Shown in pieces: positions 14,563 through 40,425 of a stretch of 64,000 nt of DNA. The stretch covers positions 4,608,001 through 4,672,000 of the forward strand of contig OZ245817.1 in the NCBI GenBank assembly GCA_965228475.1. The letters are read 5' to 3'. The translations under genes and the position numbers were made by a program. This stretch comes from Myxococcota bacterium (GTDB lineage: Bacteria > Myxococcota_A > UBA9160 > JAFDDA01). Position 1 is the first letter of the stretch. Every line of letters starts with the position of its first letter. The notes beneath the pieces were generated by a model. The model was not told the DNA's origin and did no database searches. It was given only the letters and a program-made list of their open reading frames with translations.

Positions 14563-15015
14563 ACCCACTCCGAACCACGCCAGGAATCGCGCGCTGAAAT
14601 TTCGCGATTCGCGGCGAAAATCGTTGAACGAACGCGAACGAAACGGATCGCGCTGCGGACTTCCGCAGCGGGCAGGGACGCGCGGTGCGCGCGCGAACTC
14701 GCTTCGACAACGCCGCCGAAACGTTTGGAAAGCAAAGACGATCTGACTTCGAAACGAGGGTTAGACTTCGCCTCGTCGGCGCGCATTGGTGCACGAATGC
14801 GTTGCATTGCTGTGTCACTCGCCCGTCGGTTTCAGGACGGATCGGCGTTGCCCGCTTTCGAGTGCTGTGGTTAATTGCGCATGTGTTCGACGGTTGACGC
14901 CGGAACGCTCCAAAGCCGACTGAAACCGCCGAAATTTCCCGACATACCGCCCCGTCGCTGGAAGCCCCCCAAGAGCGGAAGGTCCGACGGCAAAGCCTGG
15001 CAGGAACTTCGACCT

Positions 15016-16440
15016 TTGACTCGCCCCCCCGAGTTCTGGGACGCAATTCTTCGGCGCCTCACGCAAGACGTGCCGGCGCACGAAGTCGAGGCATGGATCC
15101 TTCCCCTCCACGCGGAAGCGGACGGGAAGACGCTGCGCCTCCTGTGTCCGAGTGCTCTCCACTGCAACCGCGTTCGCGACCGGTACCTCGAGCCGATCCG
15201 GCAGGCGGTGCGGCTCCACGCCGAAGAGGCGGGGGAGGACGCGCCCGTCGTGCGGCTGGCGCTCGCGGATTCGCCGCCGCCCGAGCGGCGGCTCGCGAAG
15301 GTCGAGCCGGACGAGGCGAACGTCCCGGAAGCCGGGGCCTCGGAGGCACCCGCGCGGGTCGCGGCGCGCGCGGGCCTGCGCGAGCCGGCGCCGCGCCGCA
15401 TGGCCCGCGCCGTCCAACAGAGTTTCGACAACTTCGTGGTCGGCCCGCCGAACGCGCTGGCGCGCGAAGCGGCCGTGGCGCTCGCGGCGGGCAGCCAGCG
15501 CGAGGTGAATCCCCTCTACCTGGCCGGCGATTCCGGCCTCGGGAAGACGCACCTGGCGCGCTCGGTCGCCGGTACCGTGCGCCGAACGGACGCGCGGGTC
15601 CTCTACACCTCGGCCGAGGGCTTCACCTCGGACTTCCTCGGCTCGCTGCGCAACCGCGAGGTTCCGCGCTTCAAACGCCGCTACCGCGAGGACTGCGACG
15701 TGCTGGTGCTCGAGGACGTCGACTTCCTCGGCGGGAAGGAATCCACCCAGCTCGAGCTGTTCCACACCGTGGCGCACCTGCTCGACACCGGTGCGCGCGT
15801 GGTCTTCACCGGCGCGCGGCTCCCGCGCGAGATCCCGGCGCTCGACCGCCGGCTCGGCGCCCAGATGGCGAGCGGCCTCGTCGCCGAGCTCGCGCCGCCG
15901 GACACGGAGCTCCGCCGCAGCATCCTGAAGAACCGCGCCGCCGCCGGCGGCATCCGCATCCCCGAAGACTGCGTCGAGCGCATCGTCGAAGCCGTCCGCG
16001 GCAGCGTGAGCGACCTCGAGAGCGTGCTCGGCCAGATCGTCGCCTCGGCCACGCTCCTGAAGCAGCCCGTCGATCTCGCGCTCACCGACGCGGCCCTGCG
16101 CAAGCTCGGCCCGGGCGAGAGCCGCACCCTCGGCAACCGGCGCGTGGCGCCGCGCGAGGTCATCGAGATGGTGGCCGCGTTCTTCGGCACGACGCCCGAG
16201 GCCCTCTGCTCCCGCTCACGCCGGCGCGACATCCTGCTCCCGCGCCAGCTCTCGATGTACCTGTGCCGCCGCTTCACGGACGCGAGCTTCTCGGAGATCG
16301 GCCGCGCCCTCGAGCGCGACCACCCCTCGGTACGGAACGCCGTCTCATCGGTCGAGCGCCAGATCCTCGAGCGCGCGCCGCTGCGCTACCAGGTCGAGGC
16401 CCTCTGCGACCGGCTCGAGCACCTGCGGGGCGAGCGCTAG
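15016..16440 (+). CDS. dnaA: DnaA-family protein (divergent paralogue of the replication initiator)
   Basis: Domain I (W...WILPL), SFDNFVVG..N, NPLYLAGDSGLGKTHL, domain IV PRQLSMYL...EIG...RDH. Several catalytic residues are substituted. TTG start approximate. Confidence 0.85.
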   Translation: MTRPPEFWDAILRRLTQDVPAHEVEAWILPLHAEADGKTLRLLCPSALHCNRVRDRYLEPIRQAVRLHAEEAGEDAPVVRLALADSPPPERRLAKVEPDEANVPEAGASEAPARVAARAGLREPAPRRMARAVQQSFDNFVVGPPNALAREAAVALAAGSQREVNPLYLAGDSGLGKTHLARSVAGTVRRTDARVLYTSAEGFTSDFLGSLRNREVPRFKRRYREDCDVLVLEDVDFLGGKESTQLELFHTVAHLLDTGARVVFTGARLPREIPALDRRLGAQMASGLVAELAPPDTELRRSILKNRAAAGGIRIPEDCVERIVEAVRGSVSDLESVLGQIVASATLLKQPVDLALTDAALRKLGPGESRTLGNRRVAPREVIEMVAAFFGTTPEALCSRSRRRDILLPRQLSMYLCRRFTDASFSEIGRALERDHPSVRNAVSSVERQILERAPLRYQVEALCDRLEHLRGER

Positions 16441-16476: not shown

Positions 16477-19400
16477 TCAGCGAGTGACCCGCTGAAGCTC
16501 GCGCTGCGACATCAACGCCTCGGCCTTCTTCCGAGCATCGGCCGCCTCCGAGACCTCGCCCGCAGCCATCAAGGAGGCGGAGTAATAGAGCCAAGCCGTA
16601 CCGGAACGAGGGAACCTGCGCGTCGCGTCCCGGAGGACGGTTCGAGCCTCCTCGGGGTGCCCGGCACGGAGCAGGAACAAACCGTAGTTCGCCGCAGCAC
16701 GGTCGTTCCCCGGTTCCGCGTCGATCCATTTCCGAAAGGCCGGCTCGGCCACGCGGTTCTCACCGAGGTCGGTCGCCGCAAGCGCGACCGCCGAGAGCGC
16801 CAGTGGGTGGCCTGGGTGGCGCTCTTCGAACCGTTGAGCCTCTTCCAGAGCACCCCTGGAATCGCCCGCGGCGCTGAGTGCCATGGCGTACCGGTGTGCG
16901 AAGCGCGGATCGTCGGGCGCCAGCTCCGCGGCCCTCCTTGCAGGCTCTACGGCATCTTCCTTCCGGCCGACGGCATCGAGGAAGTTCGACAGTGCGAACT
17001 CGATCTGCGGGCTCGGGGTCGGCTGCGCCTCTCTCGCCGCAAAGAGGACCGACTCGGCCTTCTCCCTCTGGCCGTCATCCCAGAGCTGCAGCGCATATCG
17101 GAGCAACGCGTCGGGATGACTGGGGTGAGCGGCGAGCAGGCGCTGCCATGCCAGGAAGATGCCCGCCCGACTGCCATCCTGTTCGGCGATCCCGGCCAGC
17201 AGCCAGAGGACCGCGAAGTCGTTCGGGTCCTCCTCCAACAGCTTCTGGGCTTCCTCTCGAGCCTCCGCGAACTTTCCCTCTCGCGCGAGAATCTTCGCGT
17301 CGAGCAGGCGAGCGTACGGATCTTTCGGACGAATTCGCAATGCAGCCGCCGCCGAGTGCCGCGCTTTGACCAGCGCACCCGCCTGAAGCGCCGCCTCTCC
17401 TCGCAGCGTGTAGAAGTTCGGCGAGTTCCGATAGTACTGCTCGACCGAGTCGAGCAGTACGGCGGCTGCGCGGTGATCGCCTGCCTCGAGGGCGCGAGCT
17501 GCAGCCCGGCGGGTCTCCGCCGCATCTTGCAGCTCGACTTCGGTCGCCCGAGGCCCGGACTTCGAGACGTCGCCCGGCGGGTCCGTGAGAAGCCCGATTG
17601 CTCCGAGAGCGATCCCAGCTCCCACGCTCGCGCCGAACAAGCCGCGGCGGAAGGGGCCCCTGCGCGGCGTGGACACGGTTGCCCCGGCACGCTCGAAGGC
17701 ACGATCCCGCTCGGAACAGTAGGACGGCCATTCCTCCGGAGAGATCTGCGCCTGAGTCGTCCGCCAGCGGTAGTCGAAGGTTGCCTGCTTGCGTTCCCCC
17801 TCGACGACGCAGCTGTACTCGAAACCAGGACCCGAGAAACGGTGGTCCTCCCGGCCCGGGCGTTCCACGCTGTTTCCGCGCACCACCACCCGGTGGTGGG
17901 CGGTCATCGGATAGCGGAGCACCCATGGTTGCCGCCGCGTCTCGCTCCCGTCTATTTGATCGATAACGAAGAACAGGCCGTGGGCGCCGTAGCGAAACTC
18001 CGTAGGGGTCTTCGAACTCTCGGGGCCCCAGGAGGGCAGCCCGTGACGCGTGCGAACACGGATGACGTTCGCGATCGGGTCATCTTCGACATCCGCAGGA
18101 TCCTCACTGGCGACCAAGGCGGGGAAGTAGGACTGAAGCGCCTCGGCGCGGACCCGGGTGAATGCACTCTTTCCGTCTCTCACGATCGAAGCTCGGACGG
18201 CGTCCGCCAGCGACCCCGAGGCCACGATGAGCTGTTCGACGGACCCCTCTTTCTGCTTGTGGTCCAGAAGGAACGTCTCGATGACACTGAAGTCGGTGGC
18301 TGCCGGTTCGGGAAGCGGGGTCAGCGCGTCCGCCCCTTCTCGGATCTCCAGGCCGCAGCCATACGATGCCGGGGTCCGGTGTTCGAGGTCCCCTCGCTCA
18401 CCGATCAGTGTCGGGTCAACGTAGTGCTGCTTGCCCTCGAACTCGACACTTACGATCGCATGCGAGAACGCCGCATTGGAGGGTTGTAGACGCTGGACGC
18501 CCTCCATCCAGTTCGAAGCCACGAGCATCGGACAGGCATCGACACCCAGCTCTCGCAGCAACGCTGTCAGAAGAACCGACTTGTCCTTGCAATCGCCGAA
18601 ACGTCTGCGGACGACACTACCAGCCCCACCCGGGAGCATTCCGGCACCGGTGCCGAAGTCGACCACGAGGTAGCGGATGTCCTCCTGCACGAACCGAATG
18701 GCTTCGCGAACGAGTTCTTCGCCCGTATGCTCAGCCCGAAGTTGGGCTGCCTGGGCGGCAATCGACTCACCGCCCTCTGCCAGAGCGTCCGCCCAGAGCG
18801 AATCGAAGAACGACGAGACCTCTCCCCAGCTGCGCCAGCCGGACACCTCGACGAGTGGGAAAGGCCACTCCGTCGTAGGAGAGTTGTTCTCGATCTCGAC
18901 CCGAGGAGGGTCCTCCAGCGTCCAGGAGATCCGGTCACCGTATTCGGTCTCGCGCGGACTCGGCGAACCCGGGTGCTCATGGAGGTTCCACCGGACCGGC
19001 GACGCGGCACTACGTCGGACCGAGAACGAGACCCTGGCGACGGGGAAGTTCCACGCGAAAGGAAACAGCGCGGTGAACTGCTCCCCCGGGAGAACCTCGA
19101 TCGGTTCGAGCGACCAGGAGAGATCGATCGCATCCCCGACGCGAACGTCCTCGAGAAGGGCAACGAGGGAGAGCCGTCCCGTCAGGGTCTGTTGCTCGAG
19201 CTGCTGCTCCCTCTGACGGAGCAGGAAGTCGCCGCGCTCTGCCCTGCTGACCTCTCCCCAGACCTCTCCCTCACCCTTGCGCAGCAGTGCGAGCGAGTGA
19301 ATCGCAAGACGGTGGGCAGCTGGGTCGAAATCGACCTCGACCTGGCTCAAAGCCTGGACTGCGGAGTGGGTCTGGAGGCGGCGAACGTTCCGGCAGTAGA

Positions 19401-19566
19401 CCGACCGACTCGCCACATCGTTCTGCTCATCGAGCAGAAGACAGGATATTGCGTGATCCTCGGAAGCTGGAAAGTCCCACACCGGTTCTTGGATTGTCAC
19501 CCAGGCCGGAGTCGCGGCGAGTTGCCACTCGGCGTCCTGAGGTCCGACGATACGCCGAATCGACAT
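16477..19566 (-). CDS. DUF3857 + transglutaminase-like + TM + TPR-repeat protein
   Basis: LLDEQ, DVRVGD, FVQEDIRY, FGDCKDKS, FSHAI, YVDPT; single TM, then many TPR-like helical repeats. Confidence 0.85.
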   Translation of the reverse strand: MSIRRIVGPQDAEWQLAATPAWVTIQEPVWDFPASEDHAISCLLLDEQNDVASRSVYCRNVRRLQTHSAVQALSQVEVDFDPAAHRLAIHSLALLRKGEGEVWGEVSRAERGDFLLRQREQQLEQQTLTGRLSLVALLEDVRVGDAIDLSWSLEPIEVLPGEQFTALFPFAWNFPVARVSFSVRRSAASPVRWNLHEHPGSPSPRETEYGDRISWTLEDPPRVEIENNSPTTEWPFPLVEVSGWRSWGEVSSFFDSLWADALAEGGESIAAQAAQLRAEHTGEELVREAIRFVQEDIRYLVVDFGTGAGMLPGGAGSVVRRRFGDCKDKSVLLTALLRELGVDACPMLVASNWMEGVQRLQPSNAAFSHAIVSVEFEGKQHYVDPTLIGERGDLEHRTPASYGCGLEIREGADALTPLPEPAATDFSVIETFLLDHKQKEGSVEQLIVASGSLADAVRASIVRDGKSAFTRVRAEALQSYFPALVASEDPADVEDDPIANVIRVRTRHGLPSWGPESSKTPTEFRYGAHGLFFVIDQIDGSETRRQPWVLRYPMTAHHRVVVRGNSVERPGREDHRFSGPGFEYSCVVEGERKQATFDYRWRTTQAQISPEEWPSYCSERDRAFERAGATVSTPRRGPFRRGLFGASVGAGIALGAIGLLTDPPGDVSKSGPRATEVELQDAAETRRAAARALEAGDHRAAAVLLDSVEQYYRNSPNFYTLRGEAALQAGALVKARHSAAAALRIRPKDPYARLLDAKILAREGKFAEAREEAQKLLEEDPNDFAVLWLLAGIAEQDGSRAGIFLAWQRLLAAHPSHPDALLRYALQLWDDGQREKAESVLFAAREAQPTPSPQIEFALSNFLDAVGRKEDAVEPARRAAELAPDDPRFAHRYAMALSAAGDSRGALEEAQRFEERHPGHPLALSAVALAATDLGENRVAEPAFRKWIDAEPGNDRAAANYGLFLLRAGHPEEARTVLRDATRRFPRSGTAWLYYSASLMAAGEVSEAADARKKAEALMSQRELQRVTR

Positions 19567-19639
19567 CGCTCCATCATACGCGATTCCCAGCACGGCGTTC
19601 GCCCCAGACGGCCCGGCAGGCAACGGCTAGAGTCACCCG

Positions 19640-22736: not shown

Positions 22737-23927
22737 CTACGCAATTCGGGAGATCGCGACGATGACCCACGCGACTCCGACGAGATGGAGACCTCCGAGA
22801 AGGAAGGCACTCACACCCACCCACTTCGGAGTGACCGCCATCGCGAGCTGCCCCGGGCGGATCAACGGCAATGCGATCAGGGCTCCAGACAAGAATCCGG
22901 CCAGGTGACCTGCAGTAGCGGCGTTCTCGATCACCCAATCCGTCATGGCAGCAAAGACGAGCACGTAGGCAAACATCCGCCACGGCAATCGCAAGGTGGC
23001 CGGGAGCTCTCGCCGGCGGAACACGTTGATCGACAGGAACGAGCCCATTGCGCCGAACACCGCCGCCGAAGCGCCCACAGCCGGCTGATCGGGATGGAGG
23101 AACGCCCAGCAGGACGCACCGACCAGCGAAGAGAACCCGAGGACGACGAGAAATCGTCGACTTCCGACTGCGTTCTCCAGCAGCATGCCGAGGGAGACCA
23201 GGGCGAAGAGGTTCCCCGCCAGATGGAGCGTCCCGACATGCAAGAGAACTCCGCTGAACAGCCGGACCCACTGACCCGCGGCGACTTCGTTCCCGATCAC
23301 GGATCCGAGCGGATCGAGAGCCCCCGCGTCTTCGAACCCACCTGAAAACCACATGGCCAAACCGATTCCCAGCAGAACGGAGGCGAGACAGAGGGTCACC
23401 AGCGGCGGGCTCGCTAGAGATCGGTCTGCGATCGTCGCTCGGTCCTCGAGAGACTCGGTCCAGCCGCCGGGAAGCCGTCGACGCACTTCCCGGTAGAACT
23501 CGCCCGCCCGTTCGACGGACCCGAACTGTCTGAAAGCGACTGCGATCGGCGCTCTCCCCGCTACCCCGATGCGAACCACGCGAGGCAACCGGTCGTGCCA
23601 CTCCAGACTGAAGATCTCGCCGAAAGGAACGATTCCCGTAACCCTCGACGCCGGATCTCGGAAGACGATTCCATCGCCATCGACGGCTACGCTCGACCCG
23701 TCCTGAAGCAGCCGCCGGATCTGACGGAGGGAGGCCCATCCGTTGACGATCGCCGCGGCGAGGTGGAGTAGTGCCCACACGAGGACGCGATCGGGATCGG
23801 CGAAGACTCCGATCGCCGTGACCGCCTGCCCCCCCATGCCGGCCGTAGCCGCCTCGATCTCGTAGCCGACGATCGACCCGTGCTTGAGTCGCCAGATCCC
23901 CCCTCCACTTCCAGCCGGGTCACTCAC
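22737..23927 (-). CDS. rhomboid intramembrane serine protease with N-terminal TM + soluble extension
   Basis: WVRLFSGVLLHVGTLHLAGN, GASAA (catalytic Ser), GHLAG (catalytic His); GTG start overlaps the RHS stop (GTGA). Confidence 0.9.
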   Translation of the reverse strand: MSDPAGSGGGIWRLKHGSIVGYEIEAATAGMGGQAVTAIGVFADPDRVLVWALLHLAAAIVNGWASLRQIRRLLQDGSSVAVDGDGIVFRDPASRVTGIVPFGEIFSLEWHDRLPRVVRIGVAGRAPIAVAFRQFGSVERAGEFYREVRRRLPGGWTESLEDRATIADRSLASPPLVTLCLASVLLGIGLAMWFSGGFEDAGALDPLGSVIGNEVAAGQWVRLFSGVLLHVGTLHLAGNLFALVSLGMLLENAVGSRRFLVVLGFSSLVGASCWAFLHPDQPAVGASAAVFGAMGSFLSINVFRRRELPATLRLPWRMFAYVLVFAAMTDWVIENAATAGHLAGFLSGALIALPLIRPGQLAMAVTPKWVGVSAFLLGGLHLVGVAWVIVAISRIA

Positions 23928-26900
23928 TGGGACTCCGACCCCTTCGGACGTTGCCGCGACCTGCTCCGAGCAATCAGGATTGCAAGCAACAGCTGAAGCG
24001 GAAGCAACGTGGCAACGCTCTTCCATCCGGCCGGGACCCGGGTGATGGACTGAGGCGAACAGAACGCACCGGCCATGCCTGCGATCACCGCTGCGCTGAA
24101 GAAGGCGATGCTGACGCCGCTTAGCGTACTCGCCACGAGGAGAGCCCCGTACAAGCCGAGTCCCCAGCCCAACGCACCGAACCCGAAAGAGAAAGCAGTG
24201 AGAACTGCTGCGGCCCTCTCGGCGCTCCGGTCCGGATTCGTCCCCTCCGGATCCGAGAACCACACCGGGTTTCCCAGCGTGTAGGAGAACTGGTTCACGA
24301 GCTGGAAGATCGGGTCCGGGGAGAGGAAGCGGCCGGCGGCGGGGTCGTAGATGCGTTCGCCGAGGATCATGAGATCGCCGAACTCGGCGCGGCCGACGAA
24401 ACGGATCGGGTCGTCGCTGGCTCCGTGCACCGCGGCAACGCCGTAGCCGTCGTACTCGTAGTGGCTGCGGACCACTCCGGCGTGGTCCGTGGTGAACTTG
24501 ACGTTCCCCCGGAAGTCGAAGTGGCGGTACTGGTGCTGGCCGGTGATCAGGTCGATGCGAACGTCGCCGAGGTCCATGCTGACGGGAAGGCCGTAGGCGT
24601 CGGCCTGGACCGCTCCGCCGAAGCGGCGCTGCAGCGTGACGCCCGCCACGGTCGAGGAGACGAGCCGCCCGGTCATGTCCCAGGCGAGTTCGTCCAGACC
24701 GTGGGAAGCAAGGCGGCCGTGCGCCGTCCAGGTGATCGGGATGCCGCCGCGTTCGGTCACGAAGCCGGCTTCGTCGTACTGGTAGCTCCCGACACCTTCG
24801 GCATGGACCAGGCGGTTGCCTTCGGCGTTGTACGCCAGCGGGCCGCGCGGACTCTCGAGCAGGTTCGACTTGGCATCCAGGAAGTAGTTCCCGATGCTTC
24901 CGATCCCAGCGAGTTGGGGACCCGCCGCATTGGGACCTGGAGACGGTGCGAGGTAGTAGGCTTCCTCGGTCGCCACCTCGACGCCTCCGAAGGTCTGGGT
25001 CGTCGCCCCGACGAAGTCGAGCCCGAAGCCGATCCGGGTCAGGACCGTCGATTCGACGACGTCGCCGCCGGCATCGCGGGTCGAAGCCGAATCGAGGCCG
25101 CCGATGTCCGGCTGGTAGTCGAACTCGCGCGTGAGCCCGTTCCCGTAGCGGATCTCCGCGATTCGACCTTCCTCGTACCGACGCTCGACCAGCACCGAGC
25201 CTCCCTCGCGGATCTCGACCTCGCGGCCGGCGCCATCGTACGCACGGGTGACGTCCGCGACGACCTGGAAATCCGCCTCGACGTGGACTTCGCTCGTTCG
25301 GCGCGACCGCAGGTCGTGGCCGAAGACCGTGAAGGACCCGTCGCCGTGGGTGACGGCGCTCGTGCGCCCGGCGGCGTCGTAGGCGAACTGCTCCACCCTG
25401 CCTCCCATCGTGTCGTCGCTCGAGACGAGGAGACCGCCCTGCCAGGTCAGCGTCTGCGTTCCTTCGAGCGCACCGTCCCGCAGGGCTCTCACGAGGACCG
25501 GGCGTCCGTCGTCGTCGTAGACGGTCTCACGGCGCATCCCGTTCGGACGTTCCACGGCGGTCTCCCGCCCCATCGCGTCGTGGGTGAAGACGGTCGAGTG
25601 CCAGGAACCATCAGCGAACTCTCGGCGCTCGATCAGACGGCCGAAGGCGTCGTAGATCATCTCGTGATCGTCACCCGCATCGCGTGTGATGGCGGTCTGC
25701 TGACCGTCGGCCCGGACGTCGATCGCGATCACTCCGGTCTTCAGCTGCAGGGACCGGAGGTTGCGGTCGGCGTCGTAGCTACGAGTGACGACACCGCCCA
25801 CCTCCGGGCCACTCCCCCCGGTGCCACGGACGAGGTTCCCGACCTCGTCCCATTCGCTCTCGAGATCGAAGCCGTCGATCGTTACCACCGAGGCGTGGCC
25901 GTGCTCGCCGTAGTCCGAGTAGCTCGCCATGACACCGTCCGGGTCGGTCCGACTCGCGAGGTTCCCGTCGGCGTCGTAGGTGAAGGTCGTCGTCTCACCC
26001 GCTCCGTTCGCCCGGCTCGAGAGCCGCCCGGCTGCATCGTAGGTGCGGAGCTCCAAGAGACCCAACGCATCCAACGCCTGGAGCAACGGGCGGCGGTTCG
26101 GATCCTCGCGGTTCGCTGCGGTCGGTGCGTAGGTGTACTGGATCACGTTCCCCGAGGGCTCGGTCTCGGCTCGGACGTCGTCGTCGATCCACGTCCATGT
26201 GCGGACGGACCCATCGGGTTCGATACGCTGCACCGGCCGAACGCCGCTCCAGGCGATCTGCGTCCGGTCACCCGATCCGACGAGCAGGAGCTCCACCAAG
26301 CGCCGGCTCTCATCGAACGCGAAGCGCCGCTCCCCGCCGACGGCCGGGAAGTAGCGCGTGTGGTAGAGGCCGTCGCTCTTGCCCTGATACGAGAAGGTGT
26401 GGACGGCGTCGGGTGTCCCGACGAGCCGGACCTCGGTGACGCGGCCACCGGCCACGGCGATCTCCGTTCGCTCGCCGTCCGAGGTGGTCATGGCGGCGAG
26501 CTGGCCGCCCGCATATTCATAGGTGAAGCCGGGGCGCGACTCCGCGACATCGAGCCCATCGCGAGCGTTCACGAGTCGGTCTGCCGCGTTCCAGGCGAAT
26601 GCGGCCTGGCGCCCCGTCCGGTCGGTGACGGCGACCAGCCGTGCCGACGCGTCGTAGCCCAGATCGAAGAACGTCGAGCAGCTCGCGGGCGCCGAGCACT
26701 GATCGATGCGAAGGATGCGCGTCGTCCCGCCGACCCCGCCCGACACGTAGTGGAGTCGCGGATAGCTCGCGTCCGACCAATGCTCCGTTTCGAGCCGGCC
26801 GGCGGCATCGAACGTCCAGACGACTCCCCCCTTCGTTCGAATCCGGTTGGCGTCGAGCTTCACCCAATGCGTCCCCGGGATCGCGGCGCCGTCGGAGAGC

Positions 26901-27256
26901 GAGGAGACGTCGTGCGTGGCGCCCGAGGGGTCGAGAAAGCTCACGCCGTCGTAGCGAACGTCGAAGTTCCAGAGCCATGCCGCCGCGGCGGCGTCGTAGA
27001 CGGCGGCGATCTCCCGCGTTCCCAGGCGGGTGTCGATCGCCAGATCGACGCGGCGGATCGAGAGGTTCCCGCCGATCGTGTTCACCCGCATCAGCCCGAC
27101 TTCAACGATGGCGTCCTCCTGATATTCGTAGACACCGGCTCGCGGCGTCAGCGCGGGGTTGGGCGGCGGGCAACCGAGCATGGGAAGACAGAGAGCCTGA
27201 AGGATCGCCAGGGCCCGAACCTTCACCGAGTGGGTAGTCGTGCGCGTTCGATGCAT
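23924..27256 (-). CDS. RHS/YD-repeat protein with lipoprotein signal and hydrophobic C-terminal cargo
   Basis: Signal ending LPMLGC; many YDxxGRL repeats; RHS core RIYDPAAGRFLSPDP...YTLGNPVWFSDPEG; GGAG SD 8 nt before ATG. Confidence 0.92.
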   Translation of the reverse strand: MHRTRTTTHSVKVRALAILQALCLPMLGCPPPNPALTPRAGVYEYQEDAIVEVGLMRVNTIGGNLSIRRVDLAIDTRLGTREIAAVYDAAAAAWLWNFDVRYDGVSFLDPSGATHDVSSLSDGAAIPGTHWVKLDANRIRTKGGVVWTFDAAGRLETEHWSDASYPRLHYVSGGVGGTTRILRIDQCSAPASCSTFFDLGYDASARLVAVTDRTGRQAAFAWNAADRLVNARDGLDVAESRPGFTYEYAGGQLAAMTTSDGERTEIAVAGGRVTEVRLVGTPDAVHTFSYQGKSDGLYHTRYFPAVGGERRFAFDESRRLVELLLVGSGDRTQIAWSGVRPVQRIEPDGSVRTWTWIDDDVRAETEPSGNVIQYTYAPTAANREDPNRRPLLQALDALGLLELRTYDAAGRLSSRANGAGETTTFTYDADGNLASRTDPDGVMASYSDYGEHGHASVVTIDGFDLESEWDEVGNLVRGTGGSGPEVGGVVTRSYDADRNLRSLQLKTGVIAIDVRADGQQTAITRDAGDDHEMIYDAFGRLIERREFADGSWHSTVFTHDAMGRETAVERPNGMRRETVYDDDGRPVLVRALRDGALEGTQTLTWQGGLLVSSDDTMGGRVEQFAYDAAGRTSAVTHGDGSFTVFGHDLRSRRTSEVHVEADFQVVADVTRAYDGAGREVEIREGGSVLVERRYEEGRIAEIRYGNGLTREFDYQPDIGGLDSASTRDAGGDVVESTVLTRIGFGLDFVGATTQTFGGVEVATEEAYYLAPSPGPNAAGPQLAGIGSIGNYFLDAKSNLLESPRGPLAYNAEGNRLVHAEGVGSYQYDEAGFVTERGGIPITWTAHGRLASHGLDELAWDMTGRLVSSTVAGVTLQRRFGGAVQADAYGLPVSMDLGDVRIDLITGQHQYRHFDFRGNVKFTTDHAGVVRSHYEYDGYGVAAVHGASDDPIRFVGRAEFGDLMILGERIYDPAAGRFLSPDPIFQLVNQFSYTLGNPVWFSDPEGTNPDRSAERAAAVLTAFSFGFGALGWGLGLYGALLVASTLSGVSIAFFSAAVIAGMAGAFCSPQSITRVPAGWKSVATLLPLQLLLAILIARSRSRQRPKGSESQ

Positions 27257-28112
27257 GGAGGATGCTCCGAGGGGACCGCGCGGGGTGGGAAAGAAAGGGT
27301 TCTGGCGAAGCCTTGCGCCGGGACAGCGCCGTCTGCGCGACGTGCAGGACGGACCAGAAGAGGTAGACAGCGGGCCCGAACACGAGGATCCGGAGCTCCT
27401 CGACGCGCGGCCCGGCCGCGAGAAGAGCCAGACCGACGGCGACGGGAACGGCGTGGGCGATGAAGAGCCTGCGCGCCGCCGTGCGCCCTCCTGCGGCATC
27501 GCCGGATCGCATTCTTGCCGTGGCTCTGCGAACCGAGAAGACCAGCCAGACGGCGACGTGGTACCCGGTCAGGACGGCGAAGGTATCGACGAAGGAGGGG
27601 CCAACGAACGGCATCGCGAGATCCGGGTAGACCGCCCTCACCTCTGGAGAGGAAACGGCCAGGAACGTGATCCCCGACGCACCCACGACGGCGATGCGAT
27701 GGCCCCGACGGTTCGCGGCGATCGGGGGCAGGCCTCCGATGGCCCCGCTCGACCGCTGAGACAGCTCGTTCTCGAGCACGTGCCAGTTCGAAACGGTGAG
27801 CAGCCCGAGTACCGGAAGCGGCGAAGCCAGGGCCGCCTGCCCGAATGCCTCCACCCCGGCCCCGTAGAACCCGAACACCACGGCGATGGAGGTCCAGACG
27901 AATGCCGTCCACAGGGCCCGCGGCGCACCTCCCGGGCGGGGGAAGACGGGCGGGGCGAACCATGCGGCGCCAAGAAGATGGCCGTAGCCGACCAACGTGA
28001 TGCAGAAGTAGACGTTCTCGGCGCGGCGAGGTGCATCCGGCCACAGGACGTGGGAGGCGGCCACGAAGGCGACGGGAACCGCCAACGCCAGGGCGCGATC
28101 AAACGATGCCAT
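27102..28112 (-). CDS. multi-pass membrane protein with four intramembrane His (Brp/Blh-like pattern)
   Basis: About 7 TM with GYGH, SNWH, GYH, SVLH; 3' end overlaps the RHS start. Confidence 0.7.
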   Translation of the reverse strand: MASFDRALALAVPVAFVAASHVLWPDAPRRAENVYFCITLVGYGHLLGAAWFAPPVFPRPGGAPRALWTAFVWTSIAVVFGFYGAGVEAFGQAALASPLPVLGLLTVSNWHVLENELSQRSSGAIGGLPPIAANRRGHRIAVVGASGITFLAVSSPEVRAVYPDLAMPFVGPSFVDTFAVLTGYHVAVWLVFSVRRATARMRSGDAAGGRTAARRLFIAHAVPVAVGLALLAAGPRVEELRILVFGPAVYLFWSVLHVAQTALSRRKASPEPFLSHPARSPRSILHASNAHDYPLGEGSGPGDPSGSLSSHARLPAAQPRADAASRCLRISGGRHR

Positions 28113-28785
28113 GGAGGCGACCCTCCCCGCCGCGCTCCCATCGTGCGATCCGAGCGCCCTGCCATGCGAGCGACGCCGACCCGAGAACCAGGGATGGCGC
28201 GACCATGGCCTCGATCCCGACCAGAGCGGCCGCGTTGAGCCCCGCGTGGGCTGCCATGCAGAAGGCGACGCTCCGGGTGAACTCGTACGCGGCCGCGAGC
28301 CCGACGCCCACGAAGGCGGTGCCGAGCACGGGCCACGGCTCGCCGTGGGGAAGCGCGAAGAGGAGGGCGCTCGCGAGCAGGCGGAGAGGTAGCCCCCATC
28401 GCAACCCCCGCAGGGCTTCGAGGAGCCGTTCCCGGTAGAGGAGTTCTTCGAAGGCCGGCGCCAGGACGAGAACGGCGACGACCGTCGAAAAAGCAGGCGT
28501 CGCCGTCGGCGGCTCGAACGGCTCGAAGCCCATCGCTTCGCCAACCGCCGCGATCACGACCCCCCACCCGGCGTAGCCTGCTCCGCCGACGCAGAAGCCG
28601 GCCGCGACGGTCGACGGTCTCGGGAACATCATCGGTGCATCGCGTTCGAGCATCACGGCGCCGAGGATCAGCGCGAAGGCCGCCGCCGTCGCCGCGTCCC
28701 GGCCCTGCTCCGCGAGCATCGAGGTGACGGCCCACGGCACGGTCCACACGAGCAGGATCAGCGAGAGGAGACGGACCACGTCCAT
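28099..28785 (-). CDS. CPBP (Abi/CAAX type II) intramembrane glutamic endopeptidase
   Basis: EELLYR, FALPH, HAGLN motifs intact. Confidence 0.92.
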   Translation of the reverse strand: MDVVRLLSLILLVWTVPWAVTSMLAEQGRDAATAAAFALILGAVMLERDAPMMFPRPSTVAAGFCVGGAGYAGWGVVIAAVGEAMGFEPFEPPTATPAFSTVVAVLVLAPAFEELLYRERLLEALRGLRWGLPLRLLASALLFALPHGEPWPVLGTAFVGVGLAAAYEFTRSVAFCMAAHAGLNAAALVGIEAMVAPSLVLGSASLAWQGARIARWERGGEGRLHGIV

Positions 28786-29366
28786 CCCCCACTGTGCCGG
28801 CACGACAGAACGATCCCTGCGACGACCCAGCCCGCAGCGGGAATCGCGGCGGAGACGGCCGGCGCCCCGAACGGCGGAATCGGCCGAAGCGGCTCGCTCG
28901 CGAGGCGGATGGCGCCGAGCCCGAAGAGAACGAGAGGGAGAAGCAAAGACGGGGCGACGTGTCGAAGAAGCGCATCGAGGCCCGCCGCCCCGGCGATCTC
29001 GACCGCCGCGGCCGAGACAAGATCCCCGGGGCGATGGCAACATCCCGCCACGAGACATCCCAGACGAGCGGTGGCAAAGGCGAGCGGAAGCGCGCCGAGG
29101 GCCGCCGCCGCGTACCGGCCCTGGAGTCCTCCCGTCCCCGCGACGCTCACCAGTACGCCGAGAGGGAGGAACACGATGGAGAACCCGGCGAGCGCTTCGG
29201 ACTCGAAAGCCCCGAGGTGGAGCGCGCGCCATCCGAGGTGCGCCGCGCACACGCCGAGCGCGAGGCCGGCGAAGAAGCGAGGCCCCTCCCCCGCCTCGCC
29301 GCCGCGCTCGAAGAAGCGCACGACCGCGACGGCGGACGCGCCCTGCCACAGCAAGAGCTGCATCAT
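28758..29366 (-). CDS. prolipoprotein diacylglyceryl transferase (Lgt)-like protein
   Basis: ARLGCLVAGCC and IRLASEPLR match the Lgt R-x-G-C/N and RxxxExxR signatures; shorter than canonical Lgt; start could be 29462. Confidence 0.7.
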   Translation of the reverse strand: MMQLLLWQGASAVAVVRFFERGGEAGEGPRFFAGLALGVCAAHLGWRALHLGAFESEALAGFSIVFLPLGVLVSVAGTGGLQGRYAAAALGALPLAFATARLGCLVAGCCHRPGDLVSAAAVEIAGAAGLDALLRHVAPSLLLPLVLFGLGAIRLASEPLRPIPPFGAPAVSAAIPAAGWVVAGIVLSCRHSGGWTWSVSSR

Positions 29367-29611
29367 CCCGGCCTCGAAGAAGTCGAGCCGGGCGAAGACC
29401 CCGGCCAGAAGCACCAGGAGCCATGCCCGTGAGATTCGCAGCGAGGAAGTGCGTGCCCGCATCGTGAAGCGAGCCTATGGCGCCCGCTCCACGCGCGTCA
29501 GGTAGACGGGACGGACTTCTTCGCGCGCTTCGCTCTGCGATGGGCGCGCTCGAGCGGACTGTCACATGGCTTTCAGGGAAGGGTCACGAGCGTATCCGCG
29601 GGTTCACCGCG

Positions 29612-35725: not shown

Positions 35726-38700
35726 CTAGAGGCCCGAGGGCGTCGGCACCAACGAACCGAGGTTCGAGCCGTCGCCGAATGCGCCCGAGAAGTTGTGCCC
35801 CCAGACCTGCGGCGCTTCGCTGCCTTCGGGCAGCGCGAGCGTGTGCTTGTAGCCGGCGCTGATCTCCCGGATCCGAGGCAGGCCCGGGACAGCCGTCGGC
35901 GTCGGAACGTCGAGGGTCGTGTTGATGCCGAGCTGACCCGAATCGTTGAAGCCCCAGGTGTAGACCGTGCCGTCCGCCGCGAGGGCCACGGAATGGTGCT
36001 GGCCCGCGGCGATCGCGACGATGTCGGCGAGGCCGGGAACCTGGATCGGCACCGTGCTCCCCGGGTTGAACGGCCCGGGGGTGAAGGTCCCCTGGCCGAG
36101 CTGGCCGTGGTCGTTCGCGCCCCAGGCGTAGACGTCGCCTGCCTCGGTCAACGCCAGGGCATGGAGCCCGCCGCCCGCGATCGCGACGACGTTGCTGAGC
36201 CCGACGGCCTGCACCGGCGATGCAGAGTTCGTCGTCGTCCCGTCGCCGAGCTGTCCCTCGGCGTTCCGTCCGAAGGTCCAGACCGCTCCCTGGTGGAGCC
36301 CCATCGAGAAGGATTCACCCGCGGCGACCGCGCGGGTGCCCGAGTTCGCGGAGCCGGCCAGCAGGGTCGGCACGTGCGAGGTCGGCGTCGCGCCGAAGGT
36401 CCCCTGACCGAGCTGACCACCGCCGTTGTTGCCCCAGGTGTAGACGCTTCCGTCGTTGCCGAGGGCGATCGAGTGCTCGCCGCCGGCCGCGACCATCACG
36501 ATGTCCGCGAGGCCGAGAACGACGGCGGGCGTATCGTCGAAGCCTCCCGGCGAGAGGTCGCCCAGCTGACCATGGTTGTCGTTGCCGAAGGCGACCACCG
36601 TTCCGTCGTTCCGCAAGCCGAGCGCGTGATGCAGGTGGGAGGAGACCCGGTTCACGTTGCACGCCGCGGGGCCGAGATCGACCGGCACGAACGCGGAGTT
36701 CGGTGAGTTGCCGTCGCCGAGCTGGCCGAACTCGTTGCGGCCAGTCGCGCGCAGGCCATGGTCCCGCTTCACGGCGTAGCTCTGGAAGCCGCCGGCGGTG
36801 AGCCCGGCGGCATCGAGCGGGTCGAGGGTGCCCGTGTTGCGCAGGTCGGCCTGGAAGGTCGGCCACGGCGCCAGGTGCGGCGCCCACGGGATCCCGAGGT
36901 CCCAGACGTAGATCTTGCCTCCCGCTGCCATGGCGAGATCGGCGTCCCCGTCTCCGTCGACGTCGTCGATGGCCGGGGTCGAGCGCAGGTAGTCGGACTC
37001 GCCCCAGAGATACTTGGGGAAGCCCTGGGCGCCGTTCGATCCGATGGCGTAGAGCGCCGAACGGATCGCGCCGAGCTGCTCCCGCACCGCGCCGCGCACG
37101 ATGTCGGAGCGCCCGTCGCCGTCGATGTCCGCGACGATCGGGCTTCCGGGTACGGGATTCTCCCAAACGAGGTTCATCCCCGTTCCGCCCTCGCCGTTCG
37201 TCATCAGATGCGTGTAGACGTGGGCGCCCGTGTGCTCGTGGACGTGGAACGCGTGGTGCGGCGCCTGGTTGGTCTGCTGATCCTGGCTCCCGGGGGAGAC
37301 CACGATCTCGAGCTCACAGTCGCCGTCTTCGCCCGGCACCATCGCGCCTGTACCGCTCGCGATGTCGGGGAGAGGCCACCCCGAGACCGGCGTTCCGTCG
37401 TGATGCCACATGCGATGCCCGGCGAGGATCTCGAGGTCTCCGTCCCGATCGATGTCGCCCACGACCGCCTCGGGCATGCCGTTGGCGTGGTGCAGATCCT
37501 GGGCGGGCTGCGGCCAATTCAGATTCAGGGGAGACAGTGCGTTCAGCGTGACGACGTGGACCTCGCCGAGGCCGATGAGCCAGTTCCAGATGAGCGTGGT
37601 CGAGAGCGTCAGGACGATGTCGTCCATTCCGTCGCGGTCGAGGTCCGCCAAGGTGGGCGAGCCCATGCCGATGCCCGGCAGGGCCGTGCTCGTCTCGAGC
37701 AGACCCGTCGCCGCATCCAGGATGAACAGGATCGTCTCGAGGTTCGGGTTGTCGTGGAGGAAGAAGACGGTAAAGACGACCTCGTCGCGCCCGTCTCCGT
37801 CCACGTCGCCGATGGCCACCGAAGAAGGCGTTCCCTGCGAGAGCAGGCCGGTGGTGTTCGGGTTCTGCACCGCGTAGGTCCAGAGGGCGTTTCCGTTCGG
37901 CTCGAGAGCGCGGACCACCGGCGCGCCGGCGTTCGGACCGTTCGGGTCGTAGTCGTGCACGATCGCGACGACTTCGCGCCCGCCGAGCCCGTCGACGTCG
38001 GAGATGGCCGGGTTCGTCCGTCCGATGCCCGGATCGAGGGTGAAGCCGGACTTCAGCGTGCCGTCGGCCTCGAAGACCGAGGCGCCGTAGATGATCTCCT
38101 TCGAACCGTCGCCGTCGAGGTCCGCGATCTTGGGCGACTTCATGGTCGGGTCGTGGTTCACGTCGACCGGCCAGCCGGAGAGCAACCCGCTGTCGACGCA
38201 GACGACGACGTAGTCGTAGGACGGCCCCATGTTCCCGGTGTGGTGCACGGTCAGACGGAGCTCGTAGCAGCCGTCGGTGAAGCCGCTCCAGAGTCCGAGC
38301 TGGCCGACGTTGGCGAAGGGCCCGGCCGTCGTGCCGCCCACGGGCGTCCAGGTGTTGGTTCCGAGCGGACGCTCCTCGAGCTCGTAGTAGGAGTAGTTCG
38401 CCGTCCCGGTCTTCCCCATCACGGGGTAGGGCGCGAGGCTCGAGAGCGTCGAGTGATGCAGCGGGTCCGCGATGTAGGCGTTCTGGATTCGGATCTGGTT
38501 GCGATCCTCGCTCTCGGTCCCGTTCGTGGTGTCCTTCGTCACGACGCGCAGCACGTAGTCGCCATCCGCGAAGTTGTTCGTGTTCAGGGTGTGGAGGGTG
38601 CCGTTCACGTCGAGGGGAATCGGGCCGGCGATCTGATTGAACTGGCCGATGGTCGGGTTCGCGCCCGGAGCGATCCAGACCTCGTAGTGCCCGGTGCCGC

Positions 38701-40366
38701 TCGGGCGGAGGGTGTGGCCGACGAGGTCCACGCTGTCGCGCGTCCATTCGCAGTTCGCGGGCTCCATGAGCGCCGCGGTGGGAAGCGGGGTCGCGGGGAG
38801 CGACAGCGCCGCGAAGGCGTCGATGTGGCCGAAGCCCCGGGTCACGTCGAAGAAGGCGCCTCCGGGCTGCCAGGTCGTCGTGGTCTGGCGGATCGCCTGC
38901 CGGATCTCTTCGAGATTCCACGCCGGATACTTGGCGCGCAGCATCGCCGCGAGACCGGCGACGTGCGGCGCAGCGATCGACGTTCCGGAGAGCGGCGCAT
39001 AGGTGTCGTTCTGGATGCCCGTCTGGATCACCGCGGCGTTCCCGTTCTGGACGGCCTGTCCCGTGATGCTCGGTAGATCGAGCGTGGTGAGGACGTCCGC
39101 ACCCAGGGAGAGGTTGGCGACCTGCGTGTTGAAACCGCCCGGCGCCGCGACGTCGAGCTTCACCCCGAAGCTCGAGAAAGGCGATGCCGTGAGGTTCGCC
39201 TGGGCGGCGCCCACGGAGATGCCGGTCTCCACGCCGGTGGGATGGAACAGGCAGGTGTTGCTGTTCGGGGAGTTACCCGCGGCGTTCACCACCACGACGC
39301 CGTTCGCGTAGGCGTAGTCGACGAGCAGCTTGATCGTGCTCAGGTGGGAGAACTCGCGCAGGTTCGTGTTCGCTCCGGCCGGAAAGCCGTAGCTGTTGTT
39401 GATGACGTGGGCGCCGTTGTCGACGGCGTACTGGATGGCCTCGGCCGCCGTGGCCGCGAAGTTCAGCGTGGGCCAGGGAAAGTCCGAGAGGGCCTTGGGC
39501 ACCATGATCCGTGCGTCGTGGGCCATCCCGGCGATGCCCAGATTGTTGTTGGTCTTGGCCGCCGCGGGCCCCGCGACGGCGGTCCCGTGGCCGTAGACCT
39601 CGTCGGGGTCCGGGTCACCGTTCGCGAAGTCCCAGCCGTAGACGTCATCGACGTAGCCGTTGCCATCGTCGTCCTGGTTGTTGTTCGGCGTCTCTCCGGT
39701 GTTCACCCATCGGTTCGGGATCAGGTCCGGATGGGCGCTCAGCCCGGTGTCGATGATGGCGATCACCTGGCCGGCGCCGGTCGACTGCCCCCAGGCCAAG
39801 GTCGCGTTCACGTTGGTCATCGCCCACTGGAGGTTCCAGAACGTGTCGGCGCTGTAGAGCTCCAGGACGACGTCGGGTTCCGCGAAGGTGACCTCGTCGA
39901 GGGCCTGGTACGCGCGGGCGACCTTGGGGATCTCGAGCTGCCAGCCGACCTCGAGCTCGAACACGTGATGCAGGCGCGGGCCGAGGTCGCCTTCGGGCCG
40001 CGGCAGCGCCGCCGCCGCACGCTTCGGGAACTTCTTCTGCACGCGCGCGAAGTGCTCCTCGGAGGTCCGCTCCGGATCGAAGAGCGGCGCGATCCCCCGT
40101 GCGCCATAGCGCGCGTTGAGCGAGCGCATCCCGGGAGGCAGCGGCAGCTCCGCGAACTCGACCCCGGCGCCGAGCGCCTTCACGAGCGCGTCCCCCGCGT
40201 CCGGCTCGAGCTGGAGCAGGACGGCTCCGCGCCGGTAGCCCGGTGCGGCGACGTCGAACGCCTGGGGCGTCCAGGTATCGGCAGAAGGAATCTCGGTCTC
40301 TGCCCCGGCGGTCGCCGGTACGGCGAGGACGAGCGAAGTCAGGACGAGGGTGAGGATGCGAAGCAT
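35726..40366 (-). CDS. secreted S8 subtilase with FG-GAP/VCBS repeats and C-terminal RCC1 propeller
   Basis: Signal peptide; IIDTG, HGTAVAG, GTSIAAPHVAG triad; multiple DxDGDG repeats; WGxNxxGQLG RCC1 repeats. Confidence 0.93.
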   Translation of the reverse strand: MLRILTLVLTSLVLAVPATAGAETEIPSADTWTPQAFDVAAPGYRRGAVLLQLEPDAGDALVKALGAGVEFAELPLPPGMRSLNARYGARGIAPLFDPERTSEEHFARVQKKFPKRAAAALPRPEGDLGPRLHHVFELEVGWQLEIPKVARAYQALDEVTFAEPDVVLELYSADTFWNLQWAMTNVNATLAWGQSTGAGQVIAIIDTGLSAHPDLIPNRWVNTGETPNNNQDDDGNGYVDDVYGWDFANGDPDPDEVYGHGTAVAGPAAAKTNNNLGIAGMAHDARIMVPKALSDFPWPTLNFAATAAEAIQYAVDNGAHVINNSYGFPAGANTNLREFSHLSTIKLLVDYAYANGVVVVNAAGNSPNSNTCLFHPTGVETGISVGAAQANLTASPFSSFGVKLDVAAPGGFNTQVANLSLGADVLTTLDLPSITGQAVQNGNAAVIQTGIQNDTYAPLSGTSIAAPHVAGLAAMLRAKYPAWNLEEIRQAIRQTTTTWQPGGAFFDVTRGFGHIDAFAALSLPATPLPTAALMEPANCEWTRDSVDLVGHTLRPSGTGHYEVWIAPGANPTIGQFNQIAGPIPLDVNGTLHTLNTNNFADGDYVLRVVTKDTTNGTESEDRNQIRIQNAYIADPLHHSTLSSLAPYPVMGKTGTANYSYYELEERPLGTNTWTPVGGTTAGPFANVGQLGLWSGFTDGCYELRLTVHHTGNMGPSYDYVVVCVDSGLLSGWPVDVNHDPTMKSPKIADLDGDGSKEIIYGASVFEADGTLKSGFTLDPGIGRTNPAISDVDGLGGREVVAIVHDYDPNGPNAGAPVVRALEPNGNALWTYAVQNPNTTGLLSQGTPSSVAIGDVDGDGRDEVVFTVFFLHDNPNLETILFILDAATGLLETSTALPGIGMGSPTLADLDRDGMDDIVLTLSTTLIWNWLIGLGEVHVVTLNALSPLNLNWPQPAQDLHHANGMPEAVVGDIDRDGDLEILAGHRMWHHDGTPVSGWPLPDIASGTGAMVPGEDGDCELEIVVSPGSQDQQTNQAPHHAFHVHEHTGAHVYTHLMTNGEGGTGMNLVWENPVPGSPIVADIDGDGRSDIVRGAVREQLGAIRSALYAIGSNGAQGFPKYLWGESDYLRSTPAIDDVDGDGDADLAMAAGGKIYVWDLGIPWAPHLAPWPTFQADLRNTGTLDPLDAAGLTAGGFQSYAVKRDHGLRATGRNEFGQLGDGNSPNSAFVPVDLGPAACNVNRVSSHLHHALGLRNDGTVVAFGNDNHGQLGDLSPGGFDDTPAVVLGLADIVMVAAGGEHSIALGNDGSVYTWGNNGGGQLGQGTFGATPTSHVPTLLAGSANSGTRAVAAGESFSMGLHQGAVWTFGRNAEGQLGDGTTTNSASPVQAVGLSNVVAIAGGGLHALALTEAGDVYAWGANDHGQLGQGTFTPGPFNPGSTVPIQVPGLADIVAIAAGQHHSVALAADGTVYTWGFNDSGQLGINTTLDVPTPTAVPGLPRIREISAGYKHTLALPEGSEAPQVWGHNFSGAFGDGSNLGSLVPTPSGL

Positions 40367-40425
40367 GTGGGACTCCTGAGAAACGGACGAGGAGATGCGA
40401 TGGGAAAGCGGCGGCCGGCTGGGAA

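Follow-up and report, generated by a model that had tools for sequence, protein, structure and literature searches.

Five consecutive minus-strand genes lie together in a 64,000-nucleotide (nt) stretch of the genome of a Myxococcota bacterium, referred to below as the window (OZ245817.1 positions 4608001–4672000; a single-contig genome of 5.0 Mb and ~70% GC). This cassette is best read as a dedicated C-terminal cysteine sorting and lipid-anchoring system that serves a single target, an RHS lipoprotein; it would be related to myxosortase/MYXO-CTERM yet equipped with an Lgt paralogue of its own and with a new enzyme, a reading to which a probability of about 0.6 is given. The genes encode a divergent Lgt paralogue (28758–29366), a CPBP/Rce1-like glutamic intramembrane protease predicted to cleave the tail of the target (28099–28785), a polytopic membrane protein with five conserved histidines, called five-His here (27102–28112, with a conserved core of residues 1–267 at 27312–28112), an RHS/YD-repeat shell lipoprotein of 1110 amino acids (aa) that is the single predicted substrate (23924–27256), and a rhomboid protease that is a lineage-specific accessory (22737–23927). 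An initial annotation, made from the letters of this DNA alone, had described five genes with overlapping ends; all five open reading frames (ORFs) are present, with overlaps of 28 nt at the Lgt-like/CPBP junction, 14 nt at CPBP/five-His, 155 nt at five-His/RHS, and 4 nt at RHS/rhomboid.

The feature on which the reading turns is found at the C terminus of the RHS protein and had been missed in the initial annotation. Residues 1066–1110 (23927–24061, minus strand) form a sorting-type tail composed of Cys-Ser-Pro, a spacer, a transmembrane (TM) helix, and an Arg-rich end, and this tail is the likely substrate site. The same layout, in which a ~12-residue spacer separates Cys-(Ser/Ala/Thr)-Pro from a TM helix followed by an Arg cluster, is shared by every one of the 20 orthologues that are linked to a cassette. 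The Pro of the C-[SAT]-P motif is present in all 20 tails, the middle position being Ala in 10, Ser in 9, and Thr in 1, and the Cys lies 13–19 residues (mode 15) ahead of the most hydrophobic 15-residue window. The general tripartite architecture of sorting signals, with a signature, a hydrophobic helix, and a basic C-terminal cluster, can be recognized in the RHS tail. A crude scan of the window genome returned 230 ORFs supported by their GC content at third codon positions (GC3) that end in a helix and a basic cluster, and C-[SAT]-P stands upstream of the helix in only 1 of these, the window RHS gene. No NCBIfam CTERM model matched any of 15 tails searched at E ≤ 10, a search in which short models may be filtered out, and the window RHS tail has no GlyGly motif. 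At one related locus (L057, G021:C97, ~4600–4900), the C-[S]-P motif, helix, and Arg tail lie in another frame than the rest of the RHS gene; this frame change, which falls in a Gly-rich stretch, either stems from a mistake in the assembly or is genuine.

Across 41 related genomes, the type of tail tracks the cassette. An RHS orthologue was found in 25 of these genomes and a five-His gene in 13, the latter count being the same by single-protein search and by hidden Markov model (HMM). All 11 tails examined from the 13 five-His-positive genomes (G004 and G015 were left out) are of the C-[SA]-P plus spacer type, including the tail of G021 that sits in the shifted frame. Among the 12 genomes that have RHS and lack five-His, 7 instead show a Cys motif of the CGLG…E or GCxG type that abuts the helix, and no match to CPBP, Lgt-like, or five-His was obtained in the fetched flanks of these seven RHS orthologues. 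In three of the 12, the RHS protein has no such tail, G027 has a CAP plus spacer tail with CPBP adjacent, and G012 has a YCHG plus spacer tail with both Lgt-like and CPBP genes adjacent. Tails of the CGLG type, in which (A)CGLGxE directly abuts the hydrophobic helix, also end RHS orthologues at the loci L048, L051, L053, and L054 of cassette-less genomes. In the window genome itself, at least 13 other large ORFs end in D-P-x-C, then (A)CGLGxE ~15 residues on, a helix, and an Arg cluster (e.g. 79438–82542, 88005–91340, 719765–722935, 961084–963915, and 2241788–2245258 of the genome contig). The CGLG-type tail, to which no curated NCBIfam CTERM model was matched, is presumably the general Cys sorting signal of the organism.

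The other end of the RHS protein carries a signal peptide and the lipobox LPMLGC with Cys29 (27170–27256, minus strand, read from the translation), and as the protein is a lipoprotein, the Lgt paralogue and CPBP might be supposed to act there instead, for instance in a special acylation of the lipobox. LnsB of Staphylococcus aureus would be the analogue; in that species, N-acylation of lipoproteins involves a protein with a CPBP domain, according to the accessible part of PMC7387801. N-terminal lipobox-like sequences, however, are found alike in RHS orthologues that have the cassette and in those that lack it, whereas it is the C-terminal tail type that follows the cassette, and therefore the RHS N terminus does not explain the cassette. 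Three canonical Lgt genes are, moreover, already present in the genome, and remodelling of the N terminus is considered very improbable.

By sequence, the RHS protein belongs to the RHS/YD-repeat shell proteins, both the repeats (Pfam RHS_repeat PF05593, 3.1e-33; NCBIfam TIGR01643, 4.7e-27) and the associated core (NCBIfam Rhs_assc_core TIGR03696, 49.9 bits against a cut-off of 32.5) being matched. The core spans residues 935–1005 (24242–24454, minus strand) and ends in …GNPVWFSDPEG. Between its end and the tail Cys lies a variable, hydrophobic, Ala/Gly-rich segment (residues 1006–1065; 24062–24241, minus strand), which is 60 aa long in the window RHS and 60–147 aa across orthologues. Over 60 sampled pairs, mean pairwise identity is 0.39 in the shell, 0.20 in the variable segment, and 0.32 in the tail. 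The segment after the core, which the initial annotation had taken for an RHS-caged hydrophobic peptide that is exported, does vary, as these values show, but its role as such a cargo is conjectural, and no recognizable toxin domain was found with Pfam or NCBIfam in the last 125 aa of the protein.

A post-core segment that is the most variable part of its protein could also be that of a polymorphic membrane toxin, damaging membranes while CPBP (of the Abi type), five-His, and small membrane proteins protect the producer. CPBP/Abi proteins are bacteriocin immunity factors, and directly downstream of RHS, the usual site of Rhs immunity genes, small proteins of 96–132 aa with 2–4 TM helices are encoded between the RHS and five-His genes of several related loci (L013:8401–8691, L019:8858–9229, L029:9557–9940, L030:7966–8364, and L036:8498–8890). 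The L019 and L029 proteins are alike (50% identity), the rest are unrelated, and the window has no counterpart of them. Against a toxin stand the missing toxin domain, the conservation of the tail beyond the variable part with its sorting-signal architecture, and the enzyme-like invariance of the CPBP motifs and five-His residues described below. The seven cassette-less orthologues, in addition, bear another Cys sorting-type tail in place of the C-[SAT]-P type, the RHS gene is single-copy, and no orphan toxin tips lie nearby. When the cassette genes and a further 40 window ORFs with GC3 support were scanned with Pfam, no type VI secretion system (T6SS), PAAR, or VgrG family was found, in agreement with what the initial annotation had noted. 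A toxin with its immunity genes is accordingly viewed as unlikely, and the sorting of a lipoprotein through its Cys tail is preferred.

Loci from a public collection were found with a 12-row five-His alignment, and a total of 24 distinct five-His loci, the window among them, was left after removal of duplicates; genes in the related loci were called with a crude GC3-based caller, so gene starts are approximate. RHS and CPBP genes each adjoin five-His at 19 of the 24 loci, and Lgt-like genes do so at 16. Most of the missing neighbours fall at contig ends, and gene order and strand differ between lineages. Gene fusions can also be seen. CPBP and five-His are fused in 4 of 7 long five-His family proteins scanned, a fifth of the seven joins five-His to an alpha/beta hydrolase, and CPBP and five-His parts occur in one open frame at L022; the protein P0157 is an Lgt-like–CPBP fusion, and P0162 consists of CPBP, an Lgt-like part, and an unknown C-terminal part. 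Cassette-specific HMMs confirmed the architectures of the fusion proteins. Because the cluster recurs across many genomes, with its order rearranged and with genes fused, it reflects more than chance, and the proposal that these genes form a conserved functional module rather than a chance neighbourhood is supported by the co-occurrence counts for all of them except the rhomboid. In a stricter first look at an even sample of 401 genomes from the phylum, five-His was found in at least 16, and each of these belongs to the same order as the window. Two of the loci (L029 and L038) are labelled 'uncultured Spirochaetales bacterium', the other titled loci being Myxococcota or Deltaproteobacteria; either these two contigs were wrongly binned or named, or the cassette has been transferred beyond the phylum.

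CPBP 'myxosortases' cut C-terminal sorting signals that contain Cys. The assignment of the window protein to CPBP was confirmed by Pfam PF02517 (Rce1-like; 1.1e-15, 58.1 bits against a cut-off of 22.4) and by the motifs EExxxR (E113, E114, and R118), FxxxH (F143 and H147), and HxxxN (H180 and N184), all invariant in 15 cassette CPBPs; judged by these residues, a catalytically intact protease is supported. It is not one of the named myxosortases, as it scores 28.5 bits on the MrtJ model NF033192, below the cut-off of 75, and no Mrt model besides MrtJ was listed for it at E ≤ 1 in NCBIfam. The window genome has six PF02517 CPBP genes in all. Complex prediction for CPBP with residues 1–270 of five-His gave a score of 0.02 against a mark of 0.32, a result that counts neither way.

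The window Lgt-like protein could not be recognized directly, since no Pfam model matched it and its best NCBIfam match (E = 0.17) extends over 20 residues. Its identity with Lgt-like neighbours in the same cassette of other genomes is 35–39%, and 5 of 6 aligned members of this family match PF01790 (best 3.1e-11), a domain that is also precomputed on P0154–P0156 and P0162. The family profile matches Escherichia coli Lgt (5azb) at 1.4e-4. The same structure was the top Foldseek match (E 7.8e-3, prob 1.00, TMq 0.53, 264 columns) of an AlphaFold2 (AF2) model of the window copy, which has a predicted local distance difference test score (pLDDT) of 82.5; the second match has an E of 0.76. Orthologues, family profile, and fold match together support a true Lgt homologue and uphold the call made in the initial annotation. 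The ORF can be extended to an ATG at 29462, but the start at 29366 is favoured because orthologues begin near window residue 33 and residues 1–27 have pLDDT values below 50. Three canonical PF01790 genes lie elsewhere in the genome contig (656005–656709, 2275101–2275799, and 4441390–4442091; 163, 118, and 97 bits), and the cassette copy is therefore an extra one.

The catalytic residues of E. coli Lgt were taken to be an essential Arg pair, a Glu, a His-Gly-Gly, and an N/E motif. The R…E/D…R of G.LRL..EP.R is kept in the cassette subfamily and aligns to the E. coli R…/RxxxE…R motifs, and R186, P191, and R193 are invariant in 15 Lgt-like sequences. The subfamily has (A)RLGC..GCC in place of the Arg/Asn/Glu motif of E. 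coli, presumably R-x-G-N-F-x-N-x-E, with the Arg of this motif largely conserved. The divergence of the window copy and its lack of a segment that is conserved in orthologues, together with the absence of an Lgt-like gene from several loci and the pairing of two intramembrane proteases in the window operon, would fit regulated shedding without lipidation, in which CPBP (with the rhomboid, where there is one) cuts the anchoring tail and so frees the RHS shell from the inner membrane, and the Lgt-like protein is a non-catalytic binding or scaffold subunit. Such shedding would, however, give no role to the invariant tail Cys (20/20), and Lgt-like/CPBP fusions in both orders speak against it, as do the conserved Arg and Glu residues that align to the active site of Lgt. 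In addition, proteases related to CPBP, such as Rce1, cut once the Cys has been lipidated, as stated in the accessible text of 10.1101/2023.06.07.544157. Shedding alone is thus thought to be distinctly unlikely, and lipidation of the tail Cys followed by cleavage is retained.

The third membrane protein, initially annotated as a '4-His membrane enzyme', does represent a real conserved family, but with five conserved His, four of them invariant, rather than four. Among 1.84 billion sequences, 241 representatives of this family were found at E ≤ 1e-3 and 160 at ≤ 1e-30. In 101 sequences, H45, H111, E114, N115, H220, H257, and R265 are invariant, and H185 is nearly so. The AF2 model (pLDDT 84.8) has ~8 long helices. 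The ORF continues for ~70 codons beyond the conserved core (27102–27311), and it is this extension, not conserved in homologues and with pLDDT below 50, that overlaps the RHS start by the 155 nt given above. In Pfam, no single family was hit by over 2 of the 101 sequences, the best NCBIfam match has an E of 0.036, and a sequence search of the PDB gave no match. With Foldseek nothing was found for the model at E ≤ 1e-3, and a structural search against representatives gave a best Z of 6.3, with generic seven-TM bundles and G protein-coupled receptor (GPCR) rows; a fold search that returns generic helical bundles alone does not establish the modelled fold as new. The protein atlas gave no named relative, the best scores of 0.86 and 0.75 lying below the lead threshold. 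As a candidate origin, divergence from CPBP or from the Lgt-like protein was considered and rejected; hhalign gave probabilities of 0.2 and 0.04, respectively, and five-His is therefore not a diverged copy of either. On these searches, five-His would be an uncharacterized family, for which a distant relative is conceivable. A metagenomic protein of 646 aa (P0130) has a five-His domain at residues 22–308 fused to a C-terminal alpha/beta hydrolase (Hydrolase_4/Abhydrolase_1), which points to a possible involvement of the family in lipid or ester chemistry.

The rhomboid is a clear family member (Pfam Rhomboid PF01694, 7e-24 at residues 218–357, 85.1 bits against a cut-off of 22.6; domain at 22857–23276), and the Ser and His motif positions were located by eye in the translation. 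It had been listed as part of the core module, but it adjoins five-His at only 4 of the 24 loci (the window, L024, L025, and L057) and is therefore not core. Nor does it qualify as a rhombosortase, a role that the initial annotation had mentioned for rhomboids, since it scores 40.4 bits on TIGR03902, under the cut-off of 84. The domain is preceded by an N-terminal extension of ~200 aa, and no Pfam match was found in the N-terminal half of the protein. This half (window 23337–23927) consists of one TM helix and a small soluble domain and, by eye, resembles a separate ORF downstream of RHS at L030:8371–8931.

As the cassette encodes an Lgt-like/CPBP pair beside a single Cys-tailed target, we infer a sequence of steps for it, including the topology of the tail and the site at which it is cut. 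The RHS protein would be exported via Sec and its N-terminal lipobox lipidated by the housekeeping pathway. The C-terminal TM helix and Arg cluster would then keep the tail in the inner membrane, with Cys-(Ser/Ala)-Pro in the periplasm, where the cassette Lgt paralogue would add a lipid to the tail Cys. CPBP would next cut off the TM helix and Arg anchor, as has been proposed for myxosortase acting on MYXO-CTERM. The five-His protein may carry out a further step coupled to these, either capping the new C terminus or remodelling the lipid, and in a few lineages the rhomboid may make an additional cut, perhaps in the Gly/Ala-rich hydrophobic segment. Cys lipidation with intramembrane cleavage, already suggested in the initial annotation, remains the best mechanistic reading. 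The Lgt paralogue, encoded beside a CPBP protease and in other organisms fused to one, is thereby a candidate for the enzyme supposed to add a lipid to such Cys tails, and the lipidation hypothesis becomes a compact, testable system of three or four genes.

Several observations weigh against this reading. The evidence base is in silico and comes mostly from metagenome-assembled genomes, and the related genomes are not independent samples, so no statistic is attached to the association of tail and cassette. Four loci with adequate flanks (L018, L020, L021, and L028) have no Lgt-like gene nearby, and two loci with spacer tails (L045 and L047) have no five-His; neither gene is therefore obligatory. 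L034 has CPBP, five-His, and a weak Lgt-like match with no RHS within 6–10 kb. In the Lgt-like subfamily, the His-Gly-Gly and N/E positions of Lgt are replaced. The window copy may in addition be weakened, because it fails the Pfam LGT model and lacks the HPT..YE segment that is kept in most orthologues. The tail Cys precedes the TM helix, the inverse of the normal substrate of Lgt, and the ~12-residue spacer is unlike known CPBP-processed signals with Cys (MYXO-, JDVT-, Synerg-, and CGP-CTERM), which the accessible portion of 10.1101/2023.06.07.544157 describes as spacer-less. Finally, should the RHS core cut itself at D-x-x-G, a lipid on the C terminus would hold a small fragment and not the shell.

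The cassette differs in composition from most of its surroundings. GC3 is 0.75–0.86 in its genes and 0.89–0.96 in the metabolic neighbours that were checked, DUF4153 and cofH included, in line with the weaker bias that had been noted by eye; a flanking DUF3857/TPR gene (16477–19623) is likewise low, at 0.76. One flank contains cofH/radical-SAM genes, sulfite/nitrite reductase, folB, and an aminotransferase, and the other contains DUF4153, a phosphorylase, the DUF3857/TPR protein, and dnaA. The DUF4153 gene lies downstream of the rhomboid gene across a 12-nt gap and was tried as a further member of the system; as a tblastn query it gave no match at any related locus and is therefore not counted as part of it. 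A promoter/terminator scan was uninformative, with 0 promoter-like sites and 7 weak terminator-like sites (3.5 expected), all inside genes. The plus strand at 14875–16440 of the window has a full dnaA-type gene with Bac_DnaA, DnaA_N, and DnaA_C domains, which, lying at ~4.62 Mb of the 5.0-Mb contig, shows that the contig is not rotated to a dnaA start. At 35726–40729 on the minus strand, a protein of 1667 aa is encoded with a subtilase (S8) domain and FG-GAP and RCC1 repeats; its C terminus is without a Cys sorting-type tail.

A Cys-containing C-terminal signal that is processed by a CPBP protease is a kind of system already known. New with respect to NCBIfam release 20 and the literature found are the spacer motif, the RHS lipoprotein as target, the dedicated Lgt paralogue, and the five-His family with its CPBP fusion; neither an RHS protein with a CTERM-type tail nor a dedicated Lgt paralogue with CPBP was found in the literature, subscription journals and bioRxiv supplements lying outside this search. 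The MrtJ/JDVT-CTERM system, as far as the accessible parts of 10.1101/2023.06.07.544157 and PMC11980579 describe it, is similar in that a CPBP-family protease gene lies beside a single target, in the C-terminal layout of this target, where a signature with Cys precedes a TM helix and Arg residues in a cluster, and in its sporadic distribution. The cassette differs from it in its motif, C-[SAT]-P with a ~12-residue spacer, in its CPBP, which at 28.5 bits falls below the MrtJ cut-off of 75, in its RHS lipoprotein target, and in the addition of an Lgt paralogue and a five-His enzyme. It also occurs in Myxococcota, where MrtJ is said in the accessible text of PMC11980579 never to occur.

MrtX/MYXO-CTERM, by the accessible account in PMC11980579, shares with the cassette its occurrence in Myxococcota, the protease superfamily, an invariant Cys ahead of a TM helix and Arg cluster, and two proposed steps, Lgt-like lipidation and then CPBP cleavage. 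According to PMC11980579 and 10.1101/2023.06.07.544157, both in their accessible parts, the Cys of MYXO-CTERM probably receives its lipid ahead of the cut by CPBP, from an as yet unassigned 'predicted Lgt-like' enzyme. MYXO-CTERM is described as a housekeeping signal that dozens of proteins carry; its motif, of the GC type, abuts the helix, and within the accessible text of PMC11980579 no dedicated transferase is known for it. The cassette, in contrast, serves a single target, its signal has a spacer, and a homologue of the transferase comes with it, either as a gene of the operon or through fusion with the protease.

With Rhs/Tc-type YD-shell toxins, the cassette RHS protein shares YD repeats, an Rhs-associated core that ends in D-x-x-G, and a variable C-terminal segment. 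It is unlike them in the lack of a recognizable toxin domain, in its conserved sorting-type tail, and in its predicted export as a Sec-dependent lipoprotein rather than through T6SS/PAAR/VgrG; an RHS shell that leaves the cytoplasm through Sec as a lipoprotein instead of being fired by a T6SS would be unusual. Rhombosortase/GlyGly-CTERM resembles the window in the pairing of a gene for a rhomboid-family protease with one for a protein whose C terminus consists of a TM helix and a basic tail. The rhombosortase score under cut-off, the lack of GlyGly, and the restriction of the rhomboid to a few loci set the cassette apart from that system.

The Lgt–LspA(–Lnt) pathway has in common with the cassette an Lgt homologue and a sequence in which Cys lipidation is followed by cutting of the adjacent membrane helix. 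In the cassette, by contrast, the Cys is upstream of a C-terminal helix, an inverted topology without a lipobox, CPBP would take the place of LspA, and the paralogue has RLGC..GCC, unlike E. coli Lgt. Eukaryotic and archaeal CAAX processing proceeds through a prenyltransferase, Rce1, and ICMT, and here too a C-terminal Cys is lipidated by a separate enzyme, an Rce1-family protease cuts, and a third membrane enzyme follows, as is proposed for the cassette. The two differ in that the cassette tail is a TM anchor of 35–52 residues and not a three-residue AAX and in that the lipid donor would probably be a phospholipid, as for Lgt, and not a prenyl diphosphate. No ICMT/PEMT model matched five-His in Pfam scans, and an analogy of its role to that of ICMT is speculative. 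It is nevertheless possible, although doubtful, that the cassette is a bacterial counterpart of three-enzyme CAAX processing, in which a specialized Lgt paralogue represents the long-sought class of enzymes that lipidate the Cys of C-terminal sorting signals of inverted topology, CPBP cuts, and a new metal-dependent five-His enzyme completes maturation by capping the C terminus so formed or by altering the lipid. In that case housekeeping Lgt or its paralogues would, by extension, lipidate MYXO-CTERM proteins likewise, and the RHS shell would be held by lipid at both of its ends to the membrane or cell surface.

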